A stretch of DNA of 40,644 bases from the NCBI GenBank assembly GCA_017062915.1, contig GCA_017062915.1_4331.1. One strand, given 5' to 3'. Positions 234-37,129 of the stretch are shown one piece after another. Made by a program: the position numbers and the translations under genes. The notes beneath the pieces were generated by a model. That model did not search any database. It had not been told where the DNA came from and saw only the letters and a list, made by a program, of their open reading frames with translations. The stretch comes from a phage. The first letter of the stretch is position 1. Every line of letters starts with the position of its first letter.

Positions 234-749
234 ATGAGCCAGGAATCAGTAGAAGCAGCCTACCGCCGTAAGCTGGCCTCAAACCCCGACGGCGAGATTG
301 ACTACACGACGCTGGAGATAGTGCATCCGCTTCTTTCGAAGCGGTATTTACTTGTGCGCGGAACTTCTGACCTGACGGCAACGTTAGAGACCGGAGAAGT
401 AGTTACGTTTGAGGCCACACCAATGGAGGCTAAAGGGGCCGCCAACAATAACGACATGGACCAGCGAGCATCGTTCGCATTGCCCGATATTGGAAACCAG
501 TTAGACGATGAGATGGATAGGATACCGCCCGATAATACCGTGTTGCCTAAGTTTATATTCCGCCGTTTTGTTAGTACCGATTTGTCTTACCCGGCTGACG
601 GGCCTGTTGTGTACGAGTTGCAGTCGATAAACCAGGAAAAGGGGCTATTTACCGCCGACGTTGGCGTTCCTATGTTGAACCAAAGGGTCACTGGTGAACT
701 AATGACCCCTTCAGTAATCCCATTGTTACGGGGCGTTTTGTCCACATGA
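234..749 (+). CDS. minor tail protein (putative)
   Basis: 171-aa ORF in the tail gene block, end overlaps the next gene start (translational coupling); no catalytic motif recognised. Confidence 0.4.
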   Translation: MSQESVEAAYRRKLASNPDGEIDYTTLEIVHPLLSKRYLLVRGTSDLTATLETGEVVTFEATPMEAKGAANNNDMDQRASFALPDIGNQLDDEMDRIPPDNTVLPKFIFRRFVSTDLSYPADGPVVYELQSINQEKGLFTADVGVPMLNQRVTGELMTPSVIPLLRGVLST

Positions 750-3669: not shown

Positions 3670-5907
3670 ATGTCAAGCGGATGCGGTGACGTTTTAAGCC
3701 TGGTGGATTTACAAACCGCCAAGAAACACCAGATTTTCGAAGCCGAGGTTATCACAGGTAAATCCGGCGGCGTTGCTACGGGTGCTGATATTGATTACGC
3801 AACTAATCAGGTTACTGGTCAGACACAGAAGACGTTACCCGCCGTGTTGCGCGACGCCGGCTTTTCTCCCGTGTCGTGGGACTTTTCTACAGGCGGGACA
3901 TTAACGGTTAATGACCGAGACAAAGTAGTGTATGACCCGGTAAGTATGGCGTGGTACTCGTACGCGGGGACGTTACCAGTTACAGTTCCCGCGAGTTTTA
4001 ATCCCGTAGGTAACGCTAACTGGAGGCCACAGACCGATCCTAATTTACGTGGTGAGTTATCCATCATTGAAAACATAGCTGAGCTTATGTCTAAAACGCC
4101 AAACCCAGAACTCACGTACACCGTGAAAGGCTATGCCCCCGGTACGACTTTCGGCGGGGGCATTTTCTACTGGGACGCCACCCTCCCTAAGTCACAACAC
4201 AACGGCATCACTGTATTTAGTCCAACGGTGCCATGGGACGGAACCTACACCACTCTCGCGACCTTCTTAGCTGGCACAGGGGAAACCACCCCATCCGGCA
4301 GCGGATGCTGGGTCCGTATGCAGAACAGCCGCGACATGCTCGTTTCTTGGGGCGGCGTTGACATCACAGGGACGAACGTTGCGGACGCCGCTGTAACCGC
4401 GGTTATTAAGTATGCTAATACGGTCAAGCGTTCTGTTAGATTTGACTCTGGTGCAAATATTAAATGGGGCTTCTCTACCCTTGTCCAGCACTTTGACAAG
4501 TTCAATCTTAATGTGCAATGTTCTGTTGTTCTGGAGAATATCAGCGGGATTAAGGTTTACGCGGAGAATGACGTTGAGTTCAACACTGACCACCCTACTT
4601 ATGCGGAGCGTGTTGTCTTTCGCCTTAAAAACTGTAGCGAAGTGGAATTCTCTGGATTCAACTTCAACTCCAATTTCACCGACTATTCGACGACGACATC
4701 GGACACTACGTACAAGCCCCAAGAATGGTGGCAGGGCTTCACAGCCGAAGGTTGTTCTAATATAGAAATCACTAAGCATCACGTTAATGCGTGCCAAGTA
4801 TTTGTAAGGGCTGATTGTACAAACTTAGCAGCAAACCTTCATAACATAGATATTCATGTTACAGATAACATGTTTAAGTATGTAACGAATTACTGCGTTA
4901 TTTCCAGAAACATAAATCTGGTTGAATTCAGCCGCAACAAGGTTTCATTTAATGGGCGTAACTGGCACACATTCGGAGAGGCGTTCGCCCCTACGACAGG
5001 CTCCCTTAATATAATTGCCAAAGATAACATTTTTACTAACCAAATTGCGCAGCAGTCGTGTATTACGCCAACTCTGGGCGCTTCATCTGTAACTATTCAA
5101 GGTAATTATTGCCGCCGGCAGTATGGTATTTTTGTTGAACTCGGTAGTTCAAGCAATGTGTTAATTTCTGGTAATACATCGATAAGTACCGGTGAGCGCG
5201 CTGATACAACACACATTCTTTTGGTTGGGGCGGTAGATGGCAATCCGGCAGGTGGGCTTTCAAACGTAAACATTACCGCAAACTATTTTCAAGGCGGTGG
5301 TTTTGCCATTCAAGAATACAATACCGGAAACGCATTGCGCACTGGGTTCAGTATAACTAATAATCATATGATTGACTGCAAATTACCAGCCATCACTAAC
5401 CAATCTTACATTGGTGTTGTAGTTCGCGGTAACTATATGGAAGCACCCACTAACTTTCCTGATTTAGCTATCGCAGGACAGAGGCCTGTTATAGACGGTA
5501 ACATGTTTGTTGGTGTTAGGGTGCGTGCAAGAGATTTAGGGTATAGCGTAATAGCTCCTAAGGTAACCAACAATGTATGGAGAGCAAACTCCCTGGGGGA
5601 ATCATATCCAGCACTTATCGACTATACCGAATTCACCGCATTAGTGGCGGATGGCAACGACTCAACAGCAGCGGCGTACACGGACTTCATTGTCCACCCT
5701 TCAAATTGTAATAATGCAGGGTTCCGTAGGGTAGGCCCAACTGAAGGTTTTAGCGTTAGCCCTTCCGCTCGTTTCGGCGCTAAATTGACGGACGCGCATG
5801 TGGGCGATTTTGTGGCTAATTCATCTCCTACGGCATCGGGTACTTATGCGTGGGTATGCGTTAATCAAACAACAAAAACATTCAGTTCTATCGCATTGAG
5901 TGCATAA
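3670..5907 (+). CDS. tailspike protein with beta-helix (pectate-lyase-like) repeats
   Basis: 745 aa, RBS AGAGGA; repeated short Asn/Gly/Ile-rich beta-strand units (NIEITKHH, ISGNTSIS, ITANYFQGGG, ITNNHMIDC) typical of right-handed beta-helix depolymerases; terminal position in the tail module. Confidence 0.55.
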   Translation: MSSGCGDVLSLVDLQTAKKHQIFEAEVITGKSGGVATGADIDYATNQVTGQTQKTLPAVLRDAGFSPVSWDFSTGGTLTVNDRDKVVYDPVSMAWYSYAGTLPVTVPASFNPVGNANWRPQTDPNLRGELSIIENIAELMSKTPNPELTYTVKGYAPGTTFGGGIFYWDATLPKSQHNGITVFSPTVPWDGTYTTLATFLAGTGETTPSGSGCWVRMQNSRDMLVSWGGVDITGTNVADAAVTAVIKYANTVKRSVRFDSGANIKWGFSTLVQHFDKFNLNVQCSVVLENISGIKVYAENDVEFNTDHPTYAERVVFRLKNCSEVEFSGFNFNSNFTDYSTTTSDTTYKPQEWWQGFTAEGCSNIEITKHHVNACQVFVRADCTNLAANLHNIDIHVTDNMFKYVTNYCVISRNINLVEFSRNKVSFNGRNWHTFGEAFAPTTGSLNIIAKDNIFTNQIAQQSCITPTLGASSVTIQGNYCRRQYGIFVELGSSSNVLISGNTSISTGERADTTHILLVGAVDGNPAGGLSNVNITANYFQGGGFAIQEYNTGNALRTGFSITNNHMIDCKLPAITNQSYIGVVVRGNYMEAPTNFPDLAIAGQRPVIDGNMFVGVRVRARDLGYSVIAPKVTNNVWRANSLGESYPALIDYTEFTALVADGNDSTAAAYTDFIVHPSNCNNAGFRRVGPTEGFSVSPSARFGAKLTDAHVGDFVANSSPTASGTYAWVCVNQTTKTFSSIALSA

Positions 5908-5912
5908 AACTA

Positions 5913-5936
5913 AGGCCCCAAACGGGGCCTTTTCTC
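5913..5936. terminator. bidirectional rho-independent terminator
   Basis: Hairpin AGGCCCC-AAAC-GGGGCCT followed by TTTTCTCT; T-rich on the opposite strand as well; lies between convergent gene blocks. Confidence 0.6.
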
Positions 5937-6073
5937 TACTCTTCCGATAACTTCTCCAGTACAAACGCCAGTTGCGCATTAGCGGCGTCTCTTTGCTGCC
6001 GTAGTCGTAGAACCTCTTCCTCGAGTTCCTTGATACGTTTTTGCAATGCTGGAATTGGGGCTATGATGTTCAT
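5936..6073 (-). CDS. small coiled-coil protein (45 aa), hypothetical
   Basis: ATG overlaps the upstream stop (ATGA coupling); heptad-like QKRIKELEEEVLRLRQQ; below the ORF-track length cutoff. Confidence 0.3.
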   Translation of the reverse strand: MNIIAPIPALQKRIKELEEEVLRLRQQRDAANAQLAFVLEKLSEE

Positions 6074-7894: not shown

Positions 7895-8182
7895 CTAACT
7901 ATAATAGTTTGCTATTAGGTCGTCAACCTCTTCTTTTGTTCCTACTACAAAAACATTTGCGTCGCGTTTACGAAGCCGTTTGTGTTCCCGCAACTGATGG
8001 GCCTCCGGTTCCGTGTTTTCATCCTTCTTCACCTCTACAAACCATATCACCCCTCCCGGAAGGACAACCAACAGGTCAGGCGCTCCGTTTCTACCCTCGT
8101 ACGACAACTTACGAACGAGGCCCCCAAGGGCCTCGAATTGCTCTTTTGCGTATTTCTGAATCTTGCCCTCAGGCGTACACAT
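7895..8182 (-). CDS. VRR-NUC domain nuclease
   Basis: 95 aa; GAPDLLVVLPGGVIWFVEVKK matches the PD-(D/E)XK-like VRR-NUC core (D..E-V-K). Confidence 0.6.
   Translation of the reverse strand: MCTPEGKIQKYAKEQFEALGGLVRKLSYEGRNGAPDLLVVLPGGVIWFVEVKKDENTEPEAHQLREHKRLRKRDANVFVVGTKEEVDDLIANYYS
7898..7926 (-). promoter_or_regulatory. sigma70-type promoter (TTGACG-N17-TATAGT) with AATAG-N4-CTATT palindrome in the spacer
   Basis: Reverse complement reads GTTGACG, 17-nt spacer, TATAGT; leader shares CACCAACAATA with the promoter at 36211-36239. Confidence 0.55.
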
Positions 8183-11380: not shown

Positions 11381-11409
11381 ACTATAATAGTTCGCTATTC
11401 AGGTGTCAA
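11381..11409 (-). promoter_or_regulatory. sigma70-type promoter (TTGACA-N17-TATAGT) with AATAG-N4-CTATT palindrome in the spacer
   Basis: Perfect -35 TTGACA, 17-nt spacer, -10 TATAGT on the minus strand; leader hairpin CCGGG-CAGCTT-CCCGG before RBS GAGGAA. Confidence 0.6.
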
Positions 11410-13696: not shown

Positions 13697-13725
13697 ACTA
13701 TAATAGCGAACTATTCACATGTCAA
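13697..13725 (-). promoter_or_regulatory. sigma70-type leftward promoter (TTGACA-N17-TATAGT) with AATAG-N4-CTATT palindrome
   Basis: Perfect -35 and 17-nt spacer on the minus strand; part of a divergent control region with the HTH gene. Confidence 0.6.
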
Positions 13726-13730
13726 TGGGC

Positions 13731-13758
13731 TTTTCTAAAATAATTAATATGGTACTAT
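13731..13758 (+). promoter_or_regulatory. rightward promoter for the HTH regulator gene (weak -35, -10 TACTAT)
   Basis: TACTATTCA -10 block as in the early-class promoters; half-site AATAT-N4-CTATT with one mismatch. Confidence 0.4.
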
Positions 13759-13789
13759 TCACATATCAACTGACTAAGGAGTAATTGAC

Positions 13790-16846: not shown

Positions 16847-16886
16847 GTAACTTTGTAAAAGCAACCAAAACCGAACACAAAGTTAC
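16847..16886. promoter_or_regulatory. inverted repeat GTAACTTTGT-N20-ACAAAGTTAC overlapping a candidate leftward promoter (TTGCTT-N17-TATACT)
   Basis: Perfect 10-bp inverted repeat; one half-site lies in the spacer of the putative promoter of the AlpA-like operon. Confidence 0.45.
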
Positions 16887-16911: not shown

Positions 16912-17165
16912 TTGACTTTTACTTAAAAATATGCTAAGCTTCACTGAGCTTGTGAGATATCGCAAGCGACCGCGGAGCGGCAGGGAACGCAACGCGTGCC
17001 ATTAGGCACTTGAGTGTAGTTCCGCTGGCGCTTTCGGAAGGGCCAAAGTCTATTGTTAATCCCACCTAAATACCCAAGTCACTGATAATTAAAAGTTTCT
17101 ATAGTTTCCGTGAGCAAGGTGGAAAGTACTTCACTCCGCTGGGGCGGGCTAACGCCCGCCCACTG
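16912..17165 (+). ncRNA. candidate promoter-proximal structured RNA element, copy 1
   Basis: TTGACT-N17-TAAGCT promoter (16912-16940), about 200 nt without a credible ORF, GC hairpin GGGCGGGC-TAAC-GCCCGCCC at 17142-17161; paralogous to 28022-28259. Confidence 0.4.
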
Positions 17166-17219
17166 CGTTGCGTACTCTTTTAAGAAACGAAAGAATCACA
17201 ACGGCAACGTAACTATCTC

Positions 17220-17248
17220 TTGCACGCCCCAACATAATAGGATACTAT
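17220..17248 (+). promoter_or_regulatory. early-class promoter TTGCAC-N17-TACTAT with AATAG-N4-CTATT palindrome
   Basis: Near-identical module at 18728, 27927(-) and 36211(-); leader TTATCGAAACGAGACAGAGGAG supplies the RBS. Confidence 0.55.
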
Positions 17249-17282
17249 TCACTTATCGAAACGAGACAGAGGAGTGAAGGTT

Positions 17283-17474
17283 ATGTTTAAGAAGGGTCAG
17301 TTGGTTAAATGCGCCGACGGTAAACACGGTGTGATTGAATTAAAATCCGCTTTATTTCCGGGAGAGTACATAGTTACTGTGCAAAAGGTGAGAGGAGTAA
17401 ATTCGGTGGCATACGTAGCGGAAGAGAATTTAAAACTAATCGGCAACAATTTTAAATTCAAAGGGGCGAAGTGA
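17283..17474 (+). CDS. hypothetical early protein
   Basis: RBS AGAGGAG 8 nt upstream of the ATG; first gene after the early promoter. Confidence 0.5.
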   Translation: MFKKGQLVKCADGKHGVIELKSALFPGEYIVTVQKVRGVNSVAYVAEENLKLIGNNFKFKGAK

Positions 17475-18416: not shown

Positions 18417-18458
18417 TGTTATATTGTAACAATAGTTTGAGATTTTACTGAGTGACTT

Positions 18459-18495
18459 ACGCTGCTACACAGCAGCGTATCATTTTTCTCATTTT
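18459..18495 (+). terminator. rho-independent terminator
   Basis: ACGCTGCT-ACAC-AGCAGCGT followed by ATCATTTTTCTCATTTTT. Confidence 0.55.
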
Positions 18496-18727: not shown

Positions 18728-18756
18728 TTGCACACTGAGATATAATAGGCTACTAT
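18728..18756 (+). promoter_or_regulatory. early-class promoter TTGCAC-N17-TACTAT with AATAG-N4-CTATT palindrome
   Basis: Same module as 17220-17248; leader CACAAACGAGAGGAGAGACAAGG. Confidence 0.55.
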
Positions 18757-18796
18757 TCATTTACACAAACGAGAGGAGAGACAAGGTGAAAGAGTT

Positions 18797-26088: not shown

Positions 26089-26110
26089 AGCCCCGAAAGG
26101 GGCTTTCTTA
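26089..26110 (+). terminator. rho-independent terminator
   Basis: AGCCCC-GAAA-GGGGCT followed by TTCTTAT. Confidence 0.55.
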
Positions 26111-27191: not shown

Positions 27192-27652
27192 TGATGGGCT
27201 TTTTCAAAATTACTGATGTACCGTCGCGTCGCGTAGTCCAGTTTGCCCGTGTGTCTGGCTCTGGCGAGAACGTGGTGTTTATTGAAGATGAAAGTGAACT
27301 GGGTACACCGGTAGACGATATGCCGTTTGCGGATAAAACTGGCATTGCGCTGCCCGCGGCGGGTATGCTCTATGAGATTCCGTATCTGGCTGATGCAGGC
27401 GACGTGTATTTCTCTGCGCAACCGCAGGACGCTGAACTGACAGACGGCAGCGCAACTATCACTGTCGAAGTTAAGGCGGGCAAAGCACCATATGCTTTAA
27501 CATGGTACAAAGACGGAAAGGAAGTGGTAAACGCACCCGAAGAGGCCTTGTCTCTGTCGGTTAATTCTGTCGGCGAATACTTCGTTAAAGTTACTGACGC
27601 CGATGGGGTAGAGGCTGTGAGTAAAGCAGCAAAGGTTACTAAGCCAGAATGA
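27191..27652 (+). CDS. hypothetical protein with Ig-like C-terminal domain (possible capsid decoration protein)
   Basis: C-terminal beta-rich repeat-like segment (ITVEVKAGKAPYALTWYKDGKEV...YFVKVTDADGVEAV). Confidence 0.35.
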   Translation: MMGFFKITDVPSRRVVQFARVSGSGENVVFIEDESELGTPVDDMPFADKTGIALPAAGMLYEIPYLADAGDVYFSAQPQDAELTDGSATITVEVKAGKAPYALTWYKDGKEVVNAPEEALSLSVNSVGEYFVKVTDADGVEAVSKAAKVTKPE

Positions 27653-27656
27653 TAAA

Positions 27657-27682
27657 AGGCCCCTTACGGGGCCTTAGTTTTA
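27657..27682. terminator. bidirectional rho-independent terminator
   Basis: AGGCCCC-TTAC-GGGGCCT flanked by T-rich sequence on both strands; between convergent genes. Confidence 0.6.
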
Positions 27683-27892
27683 TTCATGCGTCGCTGCTCT
27701 AAAATTAAGTTCTTCACGAGGGATAAAACCTCTATCAGTTTTTACGTAACAAGTTGTGTAACTGTACATTACCTCTCTGCCTGTGATATCTCCGTAGTTC
27801 TCACACTCGTGTTTATCTAAGCTGCGTACACCAACAGCAGTTACCAGTAAAACCGCCGATACCGTCAATACCGCTTTAATTAAGTCTTTCAT
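27680..27892 (-). CDS. small secreted protein (signal peptide plus about 45-aa two-Cys domain), accessory gene
   Basis: N-terminal MKDLIKAVLTVSAVLLVTAVGVRS signal-like segment; own early-class promoter; reverse orientation inside the forward late block. Confidence 0.5.
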   Translation of the reverse strand: MKDLIKAVLTVSAVLLVTAVGVRSLDKHECENYGDITGREVMYSYTTCYVKTDRGFIPREELNFRAATHE

Positions 27893-27926
27893 CTTTAAAT
27901 TCCTTATCTCTCGTTTCGATAACTGA

Positions 27927-27955
27927 ATAGTACCCTATTATATTGGTGTCTGCAA
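27927..27955 (-). promoter_or_regulatory. early-class promoter TTGCAG-N17-TACTAT with AATAG-N4-CTATT palindrome
   Basis: Same module and leader (TTATCGAAACGAGAGATAAGGA) as the promoter at 17220. Confidence 0.55.
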
Positions 27956-28021
27956 ACTATTTGTTTACGTATTACAGTTATTCCTCCTAATTGTAAATGT
28001 TGGAATAAACTATTCGAATAG

Positions 28022-28259
28022 TTGACTTTTCACTAAAAATATGCTAAGCTCCACCTGAGCTTGTGAAGTATGAACAAGCGACCGCGGCGCGGGCAGGTAA
28101 CGGAGCGGGACGTAAGTCATGAGTGTAGTTACGCTGACGCGTTCGGAAGGGCCATACTCTATTGCTTGTGTAAAAAGTAACTGGTTTACTGAGATTACGC
28201 CGTTTCTATGTTTAAATGATAAGGACTAGCGCCCCGCTTTAAGGCGGGGCTTTACTTAT
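28022..28259 (+). ncRNA. candidate promoter-proximal structured RNA element, copy 2
   Basis: TTGACT-N17-TAAGCT promoter (28022-28050), conserved core shared with copy 1, intrinsic terminator GCCCCGC-TTTAAG-GCGGGGC plus T-tract at 28231-28259. Confidence 0.4.
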
Positions 28260-28274
28260 CGAGAAAGGAGAAAC

Positions 28275-28661
28275 ATGAATCTTAAAGCAACTGTCGTAGC
28301 GGGAGCATGTTTCATCGTCCTGTTATATGCACACGGCATCTACCAGTACCGCGTCGGCTGGAACGAAGGCCGGGCGAATATCATTTCGCAGCAACAGCAG
28401 AAAGCACAGGCTGAGTTAGCGAAGAAAACACAACGGCAGCAGCAGGACGAATCAAAGGCCGCAGCCGCTGACAACGAAGGCAAGACGAAATCAGAGGTGA
28501 TTACCCGTGAAGTCGTTAAGTACATTAGAACGCCTGGTCGCAGCGTGTGCACTTTCGATGATGCTCGCGTCCTGCTCAAGTCCCGTGCCATCGCAAACGC
28601 CAATTCCATCCCCGGATACGACGATGATGCAGCCGCCATGCAAGCTGGCTCTGCCAAGTAG
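28275..28661 (+). CDS. inner-membrane spanin (Rz-like)
   Basis: N-terminal TM segment, Gln/Ala-rich coiled-coil region, RBS AAAGGAG; contains an embedded lipoprotein gene in another frame. Confidence 0.6.
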   Translation: MNLKATVVAGACFIVLLYAHGIYQYRVGWNEGRANIISQQQQKAQAELAKKTQRQQQDESKAAAADNEGKTKSEVITREVVKYIRTPGRSVCTFDDARVLLKSRAIANANSIPGYDDDAAAMQAGSAK

Positions 28662-32987: not shown

Positions 32988-34154
32988 ATGGCTACAACTC
33001 CTTTTAAGGGCGCGAATACCGCGCAATTCTATGTGGCGGAAACTACCCCGGGCGTGACACCGACTTCCCCGGTATGGTCGCCGTTGCGTAACACTGGCGG
33101 CGTTCCCGCGGTAACCCGCGACGCGCTGACCTCCAACGAACTGGACGGCAGCCGTGAAACCACGTCTATCCGCACCGGCAACAAACAGGTAACAGGTGAA
33201 TACGCCATTGAGCTTAGCTCAAAAAGTCAGGATGATTTCCTCGCCGGTGCGATGACATCTACGTGGCAGGCTGGCGTCGAGATTACTGGCGCGGAAATTA
33301 CTGTAGCCCCGGTTGGTAAAACGTTCACCCGCGCAACCGGTAGCTTCATTACCGACGGCGTTGAAGTTGGCGACCTGATTGCGTTCACCGGACTGACGGG
33401 CGATAACACTAAACCGTTCATCGTCACCGAAGTTTCCGCTCTTGTTGTAACAGGTGCGGGAGTTCAGCACACACTGACCGCAGAAACCGTAACTACCGAT
33501 GCAAAAACCGGCGACAAGCTGGAAACTGGTAACGCGTGTAAGACGTTCTCTATCCTGACCTGGTTCAAAGGCCAGTGCGGAAACCCTGACGCGTACATGC
33601 TGACCAAAGGTGTAGAAATCTCTGGTTTCACCATCGAGCAGGCGGTTAATGCGATGGTCACGGGCAGCTTCCCGTTCATCGGCCTGAGCCAGGAGATTCT
33701 TACGGCCCCTCCGGCTGGTTCCGACTTCTCTCAGGTTACGTTTACCGATGAGCCGTTCTCTTCGGTTGATGTGTCAGTGTTCGACGGTACGTCGCCGTTG
33801 CGTTGCGACACGCTGACCATTACCAACGACAACGGTGCTTCCGCCCAGTTCGAACTCGGCAACAGTAACGTAGCGTTCGTTGAACGAGGCCGCGCGGCAA
33901 ACACCTTCTCCATCTCCGGCAAGCTGTACGACATGGCTATGATTCAGAAGTTTATCAACGAGCAACAGGTAGAGATTAACTCTATTCTGGCGGGGGTAAA
34001 CGGGGCTATGTCATTCAGCCTGAAACGTGCCGAGTTGACCGCAGTTACACCGGAGATTGGCGGGCCAGAGTCAATCACTCAGTCTATTGAAGGCCAGGCA
34101 ACCGGCAACCAGTATCAGTCGTCTATCGTAATTCAGCGCATCACCTACGCATAA
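32988..34154 (+). CDS. major tail (tube) protein
   Basis: About 389 aa, RBS AAGAGG 8 nt before the ATG (MATTPFKG); last gene of the head-tail block, followed by a strong terminator. Confidence 0.55.
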   Translation: MATTPFKGANTAQFYVAETTPGVTPTSPVWSPLRNTGGVPAVTRDALTSNELDGSRETTSIRTGNKQVTGEYAIELSSKSQDDFLAGAMTSTWQAGVEITGAEITVAPVGKTFTRATGSFITDGVEVGDLIAFTGLTGDNTKPFIVTEVSALVVTGAGVQHTLTAETVTTDAKTGDKLETGNACKTFSILTWFKGQCGNPDAYMLTKGVEISGFTIEQAVNAMVTGSFPFIGLSQEILTAPPAGSDFSQVTFTDEPFSSVDVSVFDGTSPLRCDTLTITNDNGASAQFELGNSNVAFVERGRAANTFSISGKLYDMAMIQKFINEQQVEINSILAGVNGAMSFSLKRAELTAVTPEIGGPESITQSIEGQATGNQYQSSIVIQRITYA

Positions 34155-34159
34155 AACTA

Positions 34160-34184
34160 AGGCCCCTTTCGGGGCCTTTTTCTT
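34160..34184. terminator. bidirectional rho-independent terminator
   Basis: AGGCCCC-TTTC-GGGGCCT with T-runs on both strands; separates the major tail gene from the convergent accessory cassette. Confidence 0.65.
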
Positions 34185-34593
34185 ATTCATCAATATTATT
34201 CCTGTACTCTCGTAACTTCTCCAGACTTTCTATAGCCTCGTCTAAGTCCGTGCCTGTGTCCTTGTGCCCGCGCAACCCCATACATAACAGCTTTTTCAAT
34301 GCGTGTTGTAGCGCCGGGTCGCGGATGTCGAAAGCACGTAGCACATCATAGACGTCAACAGTCATTGTGCTGCCGTGTGTATTTGTCATGGTTCTGTCGT
34401 ATTTATTGACTTCCTTAAAGCGTGCGATACCTGATTCGGTAATGTTACCAATACAGAAGTAGGAACTATACTTAGTAGAGTACATCATCACATCTCCGTT
34501 GGGCGTGACTACTCCGTCATACACGACGCCTACTTTGAACCCGTTGCATTCCGCGTAAGGACTTACTGCGGTACATTCGTATTTTGAAGTCAT
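34183..34593 (-). CDS. hypothetical protein with DUF3310-like C-terminal region
   Basis: 136 aa; C-terminal DVYDVLRAF...ALQHALKKLL..GLRG.KD...DLDEAIESL resembles the DUF3310 phage pattern (from memory). Confidence 0.4.
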   Translation of the reverse strand: MTSKYECTAVSPYAECNGFKVGVVYDGVVTPNGDVMMYSTKYSSYFCIGNITESGIARFKEVNKYDRTMTNTHGSTMTVDVYDVLRAFDIRDPALQHALKKLLCMGLRGHKDTGTDLDEAIESLEKLREYRNNIDE

Positions 34594-35988: not shown

Positions 35989-36180
35989 CTACTTCTCTTT
36001 CACGTTCGAGTTGCAAGCCCAGATTAAAATGAATACCCACGGCAACAAAACCCATCCGAGAAATAAGTTAGCCATGAATATCGCCAGCTTTGCTTTATGG
36101 TTACGGAAGTAGGCAACTAAAAAAGGCGCAAAGTACGCGAGCAGTGCAAACAGGATTAAGGAAATTGGTAAACTGGACAT
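35989..36180 (-). CDS. superinfection-immunity-like small membrane protein
   Basis: 63 aa, two TM helices; pattern YFAPFLVAYFRNHKAKLAIFMANLFLGW...LIWA matches the small Imm-like superinfection-immunity family (from memory); first gene after an early-class promoter. Confidence 0.5.
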   Translation of the reverse strand: MSSLPISLILFALLAYFAPFLVAYFRNHKAKLAIFMANLFLGWVLLPWVFILIWACNSNVKEK

Positions 36181-36210
36181 TTTAAAACCCTCTATTGTTG
36201 GTGTAAGTGA

Positions 36211-36239
36211 ATAGTACGCTATTATATTGGGGTGCGCAA
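36211..36239 (-). promoter_or_regulatory. early-class promoter TTGCGC-N17-TACTAT with AATAG-N4-CTATT palindrome
   Basis: Same module as 17220, 18728 and 27927; drives the reverse-oriented cassette 34183-36180. Confidence 0.55.
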
Positions 36240-36347
36240 GTAATGTGATAGAATAATTTTGCGCCTAGTGTCGCACACGAAAAGCGGGTGGTTCCCGTCT
36301 GGCGCATTTACCATTAACCTGTAACCTCTTAACCAAAGGATTAAAGA

Positions 36348-36764
36348 ATGAAACTTTCTGATTTTTATTACGAAGCTGAGGCAGAAAAAGGCGCCCGTAT
36401 GCCGATACCACTGAAAGACGGCACCGATTCAGGGGAGTGGCTGAACGTTGTTTCACCGGAGGCAGACGTTGCTGTTAAAGCTATGAGGGCGTTTACACTT
36501 GCGTACCGCGCGGCATTAGGTAAATTGAAACCGCTTCGCGATAAATGCGAGGAACTGAAAGATTTCTCGGAATACAACATCAAGATGGAAGACGCCGCAA
36601 CGGACCTTAACCGCCAGTTAGCGCTTGAACTGGTTAACGGTTGGAGTCTCGACGATGAATTTAATAAAGAGAACCTGAATACTCTTTTCTCACAATATAA
36701 ACGACTCGCTGAACACGTTGTTGTTTTCCACAATGAACAGCTTCACCAATTGCAGGAAAAGTAG
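36348..36764 (+). CDS. tail assembly chaperone
   Basis: 138 aa directly upstream of the tape measure gene; RBS AAAGGA. Confidence 0.5.
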   Translation: MKLSDFYYEAEAEKGARMPIPLKDGTDSGEWLNVVSPEADVAVKAMRAFTLAYRAALGKLKPLRDKCEELKDFSEYNIKMEDAATDLNRQLALELVNGWSLDDEFNKENLNTLFSQYKRLAEHVVVFHNEQLHQLQEK

Positions 36765-36769
36765 ACGCG

Positions 36770-37129
36770 TTGCTCCAGTTTGCCCGTTGGAACTTCATAA
36801 CCCGCCACAAACGGCGGGAGTTTGACAGTATCGCCGACGGGCATAAAGCCGCGCTAATTGCTATGGGGGTTATGCAAGACGCGCCGGAAGCAACGCAGGA
36901 CACAGGGCCGGAATGCCCCCCTGAGCTATTAACCACCTTCGAGAAGTACAGGGAAATCAAATTCACCCGCCGAGTGGACGATGATGGCATCAAGATGTAC
37001 CCGCGCGAACAGTTAAGATGGTCGGATTTAGTGGCATACAGCACCGTTTCAGGCCAGAATATAGGCATGTTCGAATCTGACATCATCATGAGCTTAGACG
37101 CTATTTTCGAGGGTAGAAACGATGGCTGA
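36770..37129 (+). CDS. tail assembly chaperone extension (possible frameshift product)
   Basis: ORF in the -1 frame relative to the chaperone, open across its last codons, ending in overlap with the tape measure start. Confidence 0.35.
   Translation: MLQFARWNFITRHKRREFDSIADGHKAALIAMGVMQDAPEATQDTGPECPPELLTTFEKYREIKFTRRVDDDGIKMYPREQLRWSDLVAYSTVSGQNIGMFESDIIMSLDAIFEGRNDG

Follow-up and report, generated by a model that had tools for sequence, protein, structure and literature searches.

Background

Processive antitermination by RNA alone has been described for put, EAR and canT (PMC9378689, PMC11658703). The put sites of phage HK022 stand in duplicate and in sense orientation at operon heads, where they form 5'-proximal multi-helix RNAs with no evident protein partner (PMC9378689), and EAR of the Bacillus eps operon, canT of Tn916 and conAn2 of pLS20 are cis-acting structured leaders of long operons with internal terminators (PMC11658703). 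Here we analyze a promoter-proximal leader element that occurs twice in a phage DNA of 40,644 nucleotides (nt) (contig GCA_017062915.1_4331.1 of GenBank assembly GCA_017062915.1; the whole stretch is referred to below as the window). The window represents a Kagunavirus (Guernseyvirinae), and the region of the first copy with its flanks shares ~97% identity with Escherichia phage AV104 and further Kagunavirus genomes. An earlier note on this DNA had described the first copy as a noncoding element of ~250 nt, reminiscent of put or of a phage small RNA. Our analysis confirms that both leaders carry a real, conserved, structured plus-strand RNA of ~110 nt, for which we tentatively propose an action in cis on RNA polymerase.

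Two promoter-RNA cassettes in the window

The cassette consists of an extended -10 sigma-70 promoter (TTGACT-N17-TGnTAAGCT) and a structured RNA that begins at +1, and exactly two such cassettes are present in the window, at 16912-17165 (copy 1) and 28022-28250 (copy 2), both on the plus strand. Their alignment shows 79% identity over ~288 columns and contains all the blocks that the earlier note had quoted as shared; a repeat search of the window independently recovers the common blocks (families D7, D11 and D13). The strong promoter TTGACT-N17-TAAGCT previously noticed at copy 1 heads both copies, and its string TTGACTTTTNNNTAAAAATATGCTAAGCT is found at 2 places in the window vs 0.00 expected from shuffles. 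Among relatives the base after TG in the extended -10 varies (C, A or G), and TG itself is kept. The covariance model R1, built from the core types B and C described below with their P1/P2/P3 structure, has exactly two matches in the window, scoring 83.5 bits (E = 6e-17) for copy 1 and 134 bits (E = 6e-29) for copy 2.

The element is noncoding, promoter-proximal and directed along the plus strand at the head of both rightward gene blocks, as had been claimed. No open reading frame (ORF) is common to the two copies, the small ORFs over them differing in frame and length, and the core lengths of 105-110 nt differ by amounts that are not multiples of three. Of the original interval of ~250 nt, the folded core takes up only ~110 nt, and the rest is a spacer and a GC hairpin (Table 1).

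Structure and covariation of the leader RNA

The fold starts with the hairpin P1, which begins 0-2 nt from the predicted transcription start in types A-F. It is followed by the long interrupted hairpin P2, built in order of CCG/CGG, a bulged C, GG.UU, an N-N' pair, GCG/CGC, an internal loop, CAG/CUG, a bulged G and five more base pairs. The base of P2, with its bulged C and tandem G.U pairs, is invariant in sequence, its two strands being ACCGCGG and UUCGGAAGGGCC. The apical hairpin P3 is set within a purine-rich internal loop whose strands read AACG.AGC and GAGUGUAG, and the fold is followed by a conserved tail, AAGGGCC...UCUAUUG.

In alignments fitted to the model, whose sequences represent ~5 lineages so that independent events are far fewer than the cell counts, 97.4% of the cells are paired for 29 distinct sequences, with compensatory changes in 9 of the 28 pairs (slid controls, 33-46% paired), and 97.1% for 31 sequences including type E, with compensatory changes in 17 of the 28 pairs (slid controls, 31-43% paired). 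The latter 17 include four pairs in P1, seven in the middle of P2 and all five in P3, and shuffles never matched the observed pairing and covariation values in either alignment. P1 changes its sequence with the pairing kept (GCUUGU/ACAAGC, ACGCU/AGCGU, UUCGU/ACGAA), and the P3 loop is free to vary (GUAA, AUUA, GUCA, UGUAG, CUCG, UCACAA). Between the two copies of the window 22 pairs are identical, three compensatory, two one-sided and one broken. Such strong conservation and covariation in relatives count against the possibility, raised in the earlier note, that the two copies are merely a duplicated intergenic spacer.

Single-sequence minimum free energy (MFE) folding of types A-D independently yields the same architecture, and the MFE structure of the copy 1 core contains P1, P2 and P3 at -49.3 kcal/mol (z = -3.9). 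The folding energies of the plus strand are lower than those of the minus strand (-49.3 vs -37.6 and -35.4 vs -23.3 kcal/mol), and the invariant G.U pairs of P2 become A.C mismatches if read from the opposite strand; the fold is therefore assigned to the plus-strand transcript of the promoter, designated PA.

Several additional features were considered, and a closing helix, a pseudoknot and a leader peptide were rejected. The alternative closing helix P0 (GACC/GGCC), prompted by the leader of SenTO17, is 68% paired with A.C in 28 of 30 sequences, vs 99.6% for P2a. Pairing of the P1 loop (AGUAUG) with the tail (CAUACU) as a pseudoknot is contradicted, on inspection, by a tail position that is C, G, A or U without compensation in the loop. 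A leader peptide starting from the conserved UUG of CUAUUG would have 3, 6 or 10 codons, and the UUG is lost in K1G (UCG) and in the record L045 (UUA). For a K-turn or loop-E motif in the internal loop, no register is consistent across types.

Two type-specific peculiarities were observed. In type E (L107, ~478-512) the 5' arm of P1, located 9 nt downstream of the -10 hexamer TACGCT, is an exact repeat of it (TACGCTAACTACGCTTTCAGCGTA), and the covariance model at times pairs the promoter copy of TACGCT in place of the P1 arm. In copy 1, representing type A only, the P2 internal-loop segment CGCAACGCG (16985-16993) is complementary to UGCGUUGCG (17163-17171) just past the GC hairpin, and the MFE structure of the full copy 1 leader favours this long-range pairing (-93.3 kcal/mol). 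The pairing may be a coincidence or an alternative fold specific for type A; its downstream partner is also present in K1G, which lacks the core at this position.

Distribution and history of the two copies

Relatives were drawn from IMG/VR, GenBank and metagenomes. Four variants of the core, types A-D, occur in Kagunavirus and some Jerseyvirus, and a fifth, more divergent variant, type E, is carried by most Jerseyvirus (SETP7, SS3e, Shelanagig). Types A-D match 181 phage records, 54 of them at two places, and type E matches 269 records at one place each; among the 539 records with the adjacent spanin gene, the late position is occupied in these 181 and 269, respectively. K1G, SETP13 and numerous contigs from IMG/VR and metagenomes have a near-identical copy at the late position, which in K1G and SETP13 is the only one according to the R1 search. 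Thus, copy 2 at the head of the late operon is ancestral, and copy 1 is a derived, lineage-restricted copy at the head of the early operon, present in ~54 records.

The early position of K1G and SETP13 is taken by another leader, rich in AT, that contains three or four AAGTTACTTAAA-like repeats and GC hairpins of its own; by analogy with the nut/put exchange in lambdoid phages, this leader could be a functional replacement module. The early leader of K1G becomes homologous to that of the window again from ~GUCUAUU and CACTGATAATT on, GC hairpin included, and therefore the copied unit comprises the promoter and the core only. The early copy retained the resident K1G-like downstream leader, including the hairpin without a U tract. 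The core types reassort between the two positions, as in one contig with type C at the late and type A at the early position (L021, L022).

Rearranged late leaders composed of recognisable modules (type F) are present in Cornellvirus SP-049, SenTO17, phiEap-2 and Hafnia phage TS33. Their modules are a 5'-terminal P1, a hairpin whose two internal-loop strands (GUAGCGAG and AACGAGC) have exchanged places compared with types A-E, ACCGCGCGGAAGGGYC lacking the P2 insert, and a GUCU.UUAC tail. In the Cornellvirus-like late leaders (L109 at 485-600, L113, L114 and L115) the ACCGCG/CGGAAGGG motif is contiguous, which hints that the internal loop and this motif are separable recognition modules. The invariant motifs are kept across phages of E. 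coli and Salmonella and rearranged in phages of Enterobacter and Hafnia, whose adjacent proteins are 50-65% identical. When metagenomes were scanned with the P1-linker pattern, nothing came up besides these four core types (A-D) and five chance matches.

In deposited genomes, small hypothetical proteins are annotated over the RNA on either strand (Table 1). Their frames and lengths are not kept between core types, and they are probably spurious gene calls.

Comparison with known RNA families and antiterminators

Covariance searches place the leader outside the described families that we tested. Rfam 15 has no match at gathering thresholds in the whole window, and at E <= 10 the searches of each leader give chance-level matches only (wcaG, 16 bits vs a threshold of 42; NsiR8, 17 vs 61). 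The second model, R2, built from putL and putR of HK022, recovers both put sites (94.7 and 87.7 bits) and finds no match at either leader, its best window matches (E = 0.9-8) lying at unrelated places; R1, in turn, finds nothing in HK022. A blastn search with putL returned 21 lambdoid records and no Guernseyvirinae. The two leaders thus do not belong to the HK022 put family.

The placement is nevertheless that of put sites, with two paralogous sense copies, each just downstream of a strong sigma-70 promoter and upstream of the terminators of a long operon. Further likenesses are an RNA of several helices, bulged and with conserved internal loops, that extends from the 5' end of the transcript, as in putL, and the lack of an evident dedicated antiterminator protein. 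The differences include the absence of sequence or structure homology, the size (~70 nt for put vs ~110 nt) and the architecture, put having two comparable stems with a triplex, whereas the leader has a short hairpin and one long interrupted hairpin. The put sites serve early operons of lambdoid phages, whereas the leader belongs to a virulent siphovirus with its main copy at the late structural operon. Antitermination by put is factor-independent, cis-acting and processive, and acts via the beta' zinc-binding domain; for the present leader, antitermination is a proposal. The leaders EAR, canT and conAn2 are similar to it as structured RNAs at the head of long operons with internal terminators, and differ by their Firmicutes hosts and unrelated sequences; in addition, canT requires ~450 nt and conAn2 depends on a partner protein.

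Copy 2 also resembles the lambda PR'-6S RNA-tR' arrangement in its strong late promoter, untranslated leader of ~195 nt and terminator-like hairpin preceding lysis and structural genes. Here the RNA fold is under selection, as evident from covariation, which the Q/qut system does not require; no Q-like protein was found, and the DNA palindrome lies upstream of the -35 hexamer and not between the promoter hexamers. An element similar to ops/RfaH was rejected because only GTAG is in common, as judged by eye. We found no description of this leader RNA in the literature on transcription or noncoding RNA of Guernseyvirinae, Kagunavirus and Jerseyvirus.

Operon context and leader hairpins

The gene map was taken from the annotated relatives K1G, SETP13 and AV104. 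Copy 1 is flanked by a leftward helix-turn-helix (HTH) gene and by the rightward block that it heads, comprising small early ORFs followed by holin, endolysin, terminase, portal and head genes. Copy 2 is located between the end of this early/terminase block and the late operon (Rz-like spanin, scaffold, major capsid, neck and tail genes). The early/lysis/terminase operon spans ~10 kb and the late structural operon ~6 kb.

The terminator-like hairpin of copy 2, located ~195 nt from the transcript start and directly followed by TTTACTTAT, ends 15 nt before the ribosome-binding site (RBS, 28265-28270) of the first late gene (ATG at 28275). No room is left for a promoter between them, so late expression from PA requires read-through. 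The stem is kept by compensatory change in one relative (GCCCTGC/GCAGGGC in L006), and a GC hairpin stands 13-17 nt before the RBS in all late leader types. The hairpin said to close copy 1 is indeed present, and its pairing is kept in relatives by compensatory change (GGGTGGGC/GCCCACCC); lacking a U tract, it is not terminator-like. The terminator-like call was obtained for copy 2 (late, type B) and for the early leader of type D. Two further strong terminator-like hairpins lie inside the copy 1 operon at 18458-18479(+) and 26089-26104(+), the latter between the portal and head-morphogenesis genes.

Possible modes of action

Given the observed promoter, fold, strand, conservation and position of the leader, we infer that its RNA binds the polymerase and antiterminates. 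In the proposed mechanism, which we hold as tentative and somewhat short of an even chance, the leader is a cis-acting nascent RNA that modifies RNA polymerase or its elongation complex, put-like in action and outside the put family. The strong host sigma-70 promoter would start transcription straight into the ~110-nt RNA, which would fold co-transcriptionally into P1 and then into the long interrupted P2/P3 hairpin. The nascent RNA would stay on its own RNA polymerase, or on a conserved host elongation factor there, and the polymerase would thereby resist pausing and termination. Transcription could then proceed through the hairpin or terminator of the leader and through the terminators inside both the early/lysis/terminase and the late operons. 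The more specific proposal, that virulent Guernseyvirinae have a second, structurally unrelated class of factor-independent put-like RNA heading the late structural operon, is possible and more doubtful.

We favour action in cis because the RNA invariably stands in line with a long operon, at +1 to +3 from a strong promoter, the duplicated unit brought no terminator, late read-through is obligatory, and the recognition-like motifs are invariant. The duplication of promoter and core without a terminator fits a head-of-transcript element better than an autonomous small RNA gene. The invariance of these motifs while the adjacent phage proteins diverge suggests a conserved host partner over a co-evolving phage protein, and the conserved modules may be recognised by something invariant among Enterobacterales hosts. 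The lack of N-like or Q-like proteins in the PHROGs comparison described below points the same way, and the terminator-like sites inside the copy 1 operon would make read-through useful there.

Several observations weigh against antitermination in cis. The canonical terminator is not universal: it is not called in copy 1 of the window (type A) or in the late leaders of type E, and the hairpins preceding the late genes in type F have no U tract, as judged by eye, which weakens an argument from the order promoter-RNA-terminator. K1G and SETP13 have the same operon layout with another early leader, so the core seems to be dispensable at the early position or replaced there. The null result with R2 counts on the same side. 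Most early ORFs are without known function, and a protein cofactor could be encoded among them. Finally, the text of the one Kagunavirus RNA-seq paper found contains neither 'intergenic' nor 'noncoding' (PMC12645636). Our confidence in cis action is held down by the non-universal terminator and the dispensable early copy.

A discrete, stable, trans-acting noncoding RNA of ~195-215 nt, extending from PA to the GC hairpin and formed by termination or processing, is a rather unlikely alternative. P1, with at most two unpaired 5' nucleotides before it, would guard the 5' end and the hairpin the 3' end. The target would be a host protein or RNA, bound or titrated through the conserved loops, the invariant single-stranded GAGUGUAG, AAGGGCC and UCUAUUG being candidate recognition sites. 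Leader RNAs of this kind do accumulate, as does the lambda 6S RNA made from PR' to tR', and copy 2 has both its own promoter and a terminator-like hairpin at a matching distance; the position of a GC hairpin before the RBS in every late leader type also fits. The early copy, however, brought no terminator and uses a hairpin without a U tract, the element occurs only in line with an operon and never at a locus of its own, and the U tracts are poor for Hfq-type small RNAs. Nothing in E. coli resembles the leader closely enough to hint at a mimic: a blastn search of 5,426 E. coli genomes with the late leader gave no match, and host origin or mimicry is therefore rejected.

Recognition of the leader by a phage protein, whether for nut-like recruitment of an antiterminator or as an attenuator or autoregulatory operator, appears to us unlikely. 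One copy per leader in two operons recalls the duplicated RNA signals nutL and nutR of lambda, many early ORFs are of unknown function, and the phage encodes site-specific regulators, as seen from the palindromic operators in the vicinity of its late promoter. The comparison with nut fails in that the P3 loop sequence varies, unlike boxB, and only a weak resemblance to boxA was seen by eye (CUCUAUUG). Among the 20 early or adjacent ORFs, PHROGs gave no N-like or Q-like protein, the only matches being the HTH protein, the holin and the endolysin, although a protein of an unrecognised family may act here. The recognition-like motifs are moreover invariant where phage proteins have diverged to 50-65% identity.

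It is improbable that the leader is only a 5' stabilising or processing module that protects the long mRNAs of the operons against RppH and RNase E and leaves transcription unaffected. The closeness of P1 to the predicted start and its changes of sequence with retained pairing agree with such a role; a simple hairpin would be enough for it, however, which leaves unexplained why there is a P2/P3 domain of ~85 nt, with sequence motifs that do not vary and an internal loop that is conserved, and the 90-230 nt between the core and the first gene are open to internal entry of RNase E. A metabolite or ion riboswitch controlling the late operon through the downstream terminator is highly improbable. 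In its favour are the conserved folded domain with invariant unpaired nucleotides and, in copy 2, its location upstream of a terminator-like hairpin. Against it, no alternative pairing of the core with the terminator arms was seen to be conserved across types (inspected by eye only), the core-to-hairpin spacer of 65-80 nt is variable, several leader types are without a canonical terminator, and no Rfam riboswitch matches even at E <= 10.

Promoter regulation and neighbouring elements

A palindrome abutting the -35 hexamer distinguishes the late promoter from the early one (Table 1). Probably it is bound by a regulator, so that the late copy is conditional. Types E and F have other palindromes there, as upstream of the late promoters of SETP7 (TGAATACTTTATTCA) and SenTO17 (GGAATAAATTATTCC). 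Since the palindrome is late-only, timing is probably set at the DNA level, and the RNA is the feature common to both transcripts. A palindrome stands just upstream of -35 at every late PA promoter examined, with a lineage-specific sequence (CTATTC|GAATAG in the window, TGAATA-CTT-TATTCA in L107 at ~453-467, GGAATAA-A-TTATTCC in L109 at ~420-434).

The half-site of the late palindromes resembles that of a near-palindrome, TGAATAG-N4-CTATTATA, which has 11 occurrences in the window vs ~0.9 expected; this suggests one regulator for both. The motif holds TATAAT on one strand, and its other strand pairs with TTGACA at 17 nt (TTGACA-N17-TATAGT at 11383), so that it could serve as a -10 element in either direction and as an operator. 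Several copies are located 35-46 nt before a start codon, and the same consensus is listed as 'phage promoter' in the paper on fBC-Eco01 (PMC9825357). Like its paralogues, the site at 17233-17251, read rightward (CATAAT), precedes a start codon (ATG at 17283), here by ~46 nt. The idea that this site drives convergent antisense transcription across copy 1 was set aside, the HTH gene having its own promoter.

The real start of the leftward HTH gene is ATG 16806 and not TTG 16896. Its promoter is flanked by a 10-nt inverted repeat, GTAACTTTGT / ACAAAGTTAC (16847-16856 and 16877-16886), and the gene with this promoter forms the back-to-back divergent partner of the early PA promoter. The three rightward operons end in bidirectional terminators of repeat family D2, AAGGCCCC-loop-GGGGCCTT (5902-5944, 27646-27688 and 34149-34191). 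A search for tRNA and tmRNA genes found none.

Table 1. Coordinates of the leader features and associated elements (window positions, unless a relative is named)
Feature	Position	Strand	Basis or remark
Early PA promoter: TTGACT, 17-nt spacer ending TGC, TAAGCT	16912-16940	+	predicted start ~16946-16947
Core RNA, copy 1 (type A)	16946-17055	+	R1 match, MFE fold, covariation
P1 of copy 1, 5'-terminal hairpin	16948-16967	+	
P2 and P3 of copy 1	16970-17037	+	
Conserved tail of copy 1, AAGGGCCAAAGUCUAUUG	17038-17055	+	
Conserved spacer block CACTGATAATTAAAAGTTTCTATAGTT	17080-17106	+	common to copy 2 and the core-less early leader of K1G
GC hairpin of copy 1, GGGCGGGC-UAAC-GCCCGCCC	17142-17161	+	no adjacent U tract; not called terminator-like
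Palindrome AACTATTCGAATAGTT	28008-28023		abuts -35 of late PA promoter; centre ~-41.5; absent at copy 1
Late PA promoter: TTGACT, 17-nt spacer, TAAGCT, TGC extended -10	28022-28050	+	predicted start ~28057
Core RNA, copy 2 (type B)	28057-28164	+	R1 match; MFE fold is the consensus fold
Conserved spacer block TTACTGAGATTACGCCGTTTCTATGTTT	28186-28213	+	alignment with copy 1; partly kept in type E leaders
Hairpin of copy 2, GCCCCGCU-UUAA-GGCGGGGC, then UUUACUUAU	28231-28259 (stem-loop 28231-28250)	+	called terminator-like
HTH gene promoter, TTGCTT-N17-TATACT	16864-16836	-	sequence
TGAATAG motif sites	7900-7918, 11383-11401, 13699-13717, 13743-13761, 17233-17251, 18741-18759	-	
TGAATAG motif sites	27924-27942, 36208-36226	+	plus three weaker sites in the window
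Core-less early leader, K1G (L041)	36680-36880		
Core-less early leader, SETP13 (L040)	35990-36250		
ORF annotated over the RNA, SETP7 gp07 (L107)	537-656		
ORF annotated over the RNA, L112	537-656		
ORF annotated over the RNA, L042	636-761	-	
ORF annotated over the RNA, L044	633-740	-	

Conclusions

The support for the leader as a structured RNA family is good, and none of the Rfam 15 models matches it. Whatever the mechanism, this RNA controls or accompanies the structural-gene operon of Kagunavirus and Jerseyvirus, which are common candidates for therapy and biocontrol. To our knowledge, put is almost the sole enterobacterial RNA that reprograms RNA polymerase directly, and it occurs in only a few lambdoid phages (the 21 records above). 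If the leader is an RNA antiterminator, an unrelated second fold in ~450 virulent phage genomes would make this strategy general and would provide a new handle on the surface of RNA polymerase formed by the RNA exit channel and the zinc-binding domain. The promoter-plus-RNA cassette is compact and directly testable in a simple reporter. If the proposal is true, the RNA polymerase of E. coli or Salmonella would be made termination-resistant by phages that are widely used in phage therapy.
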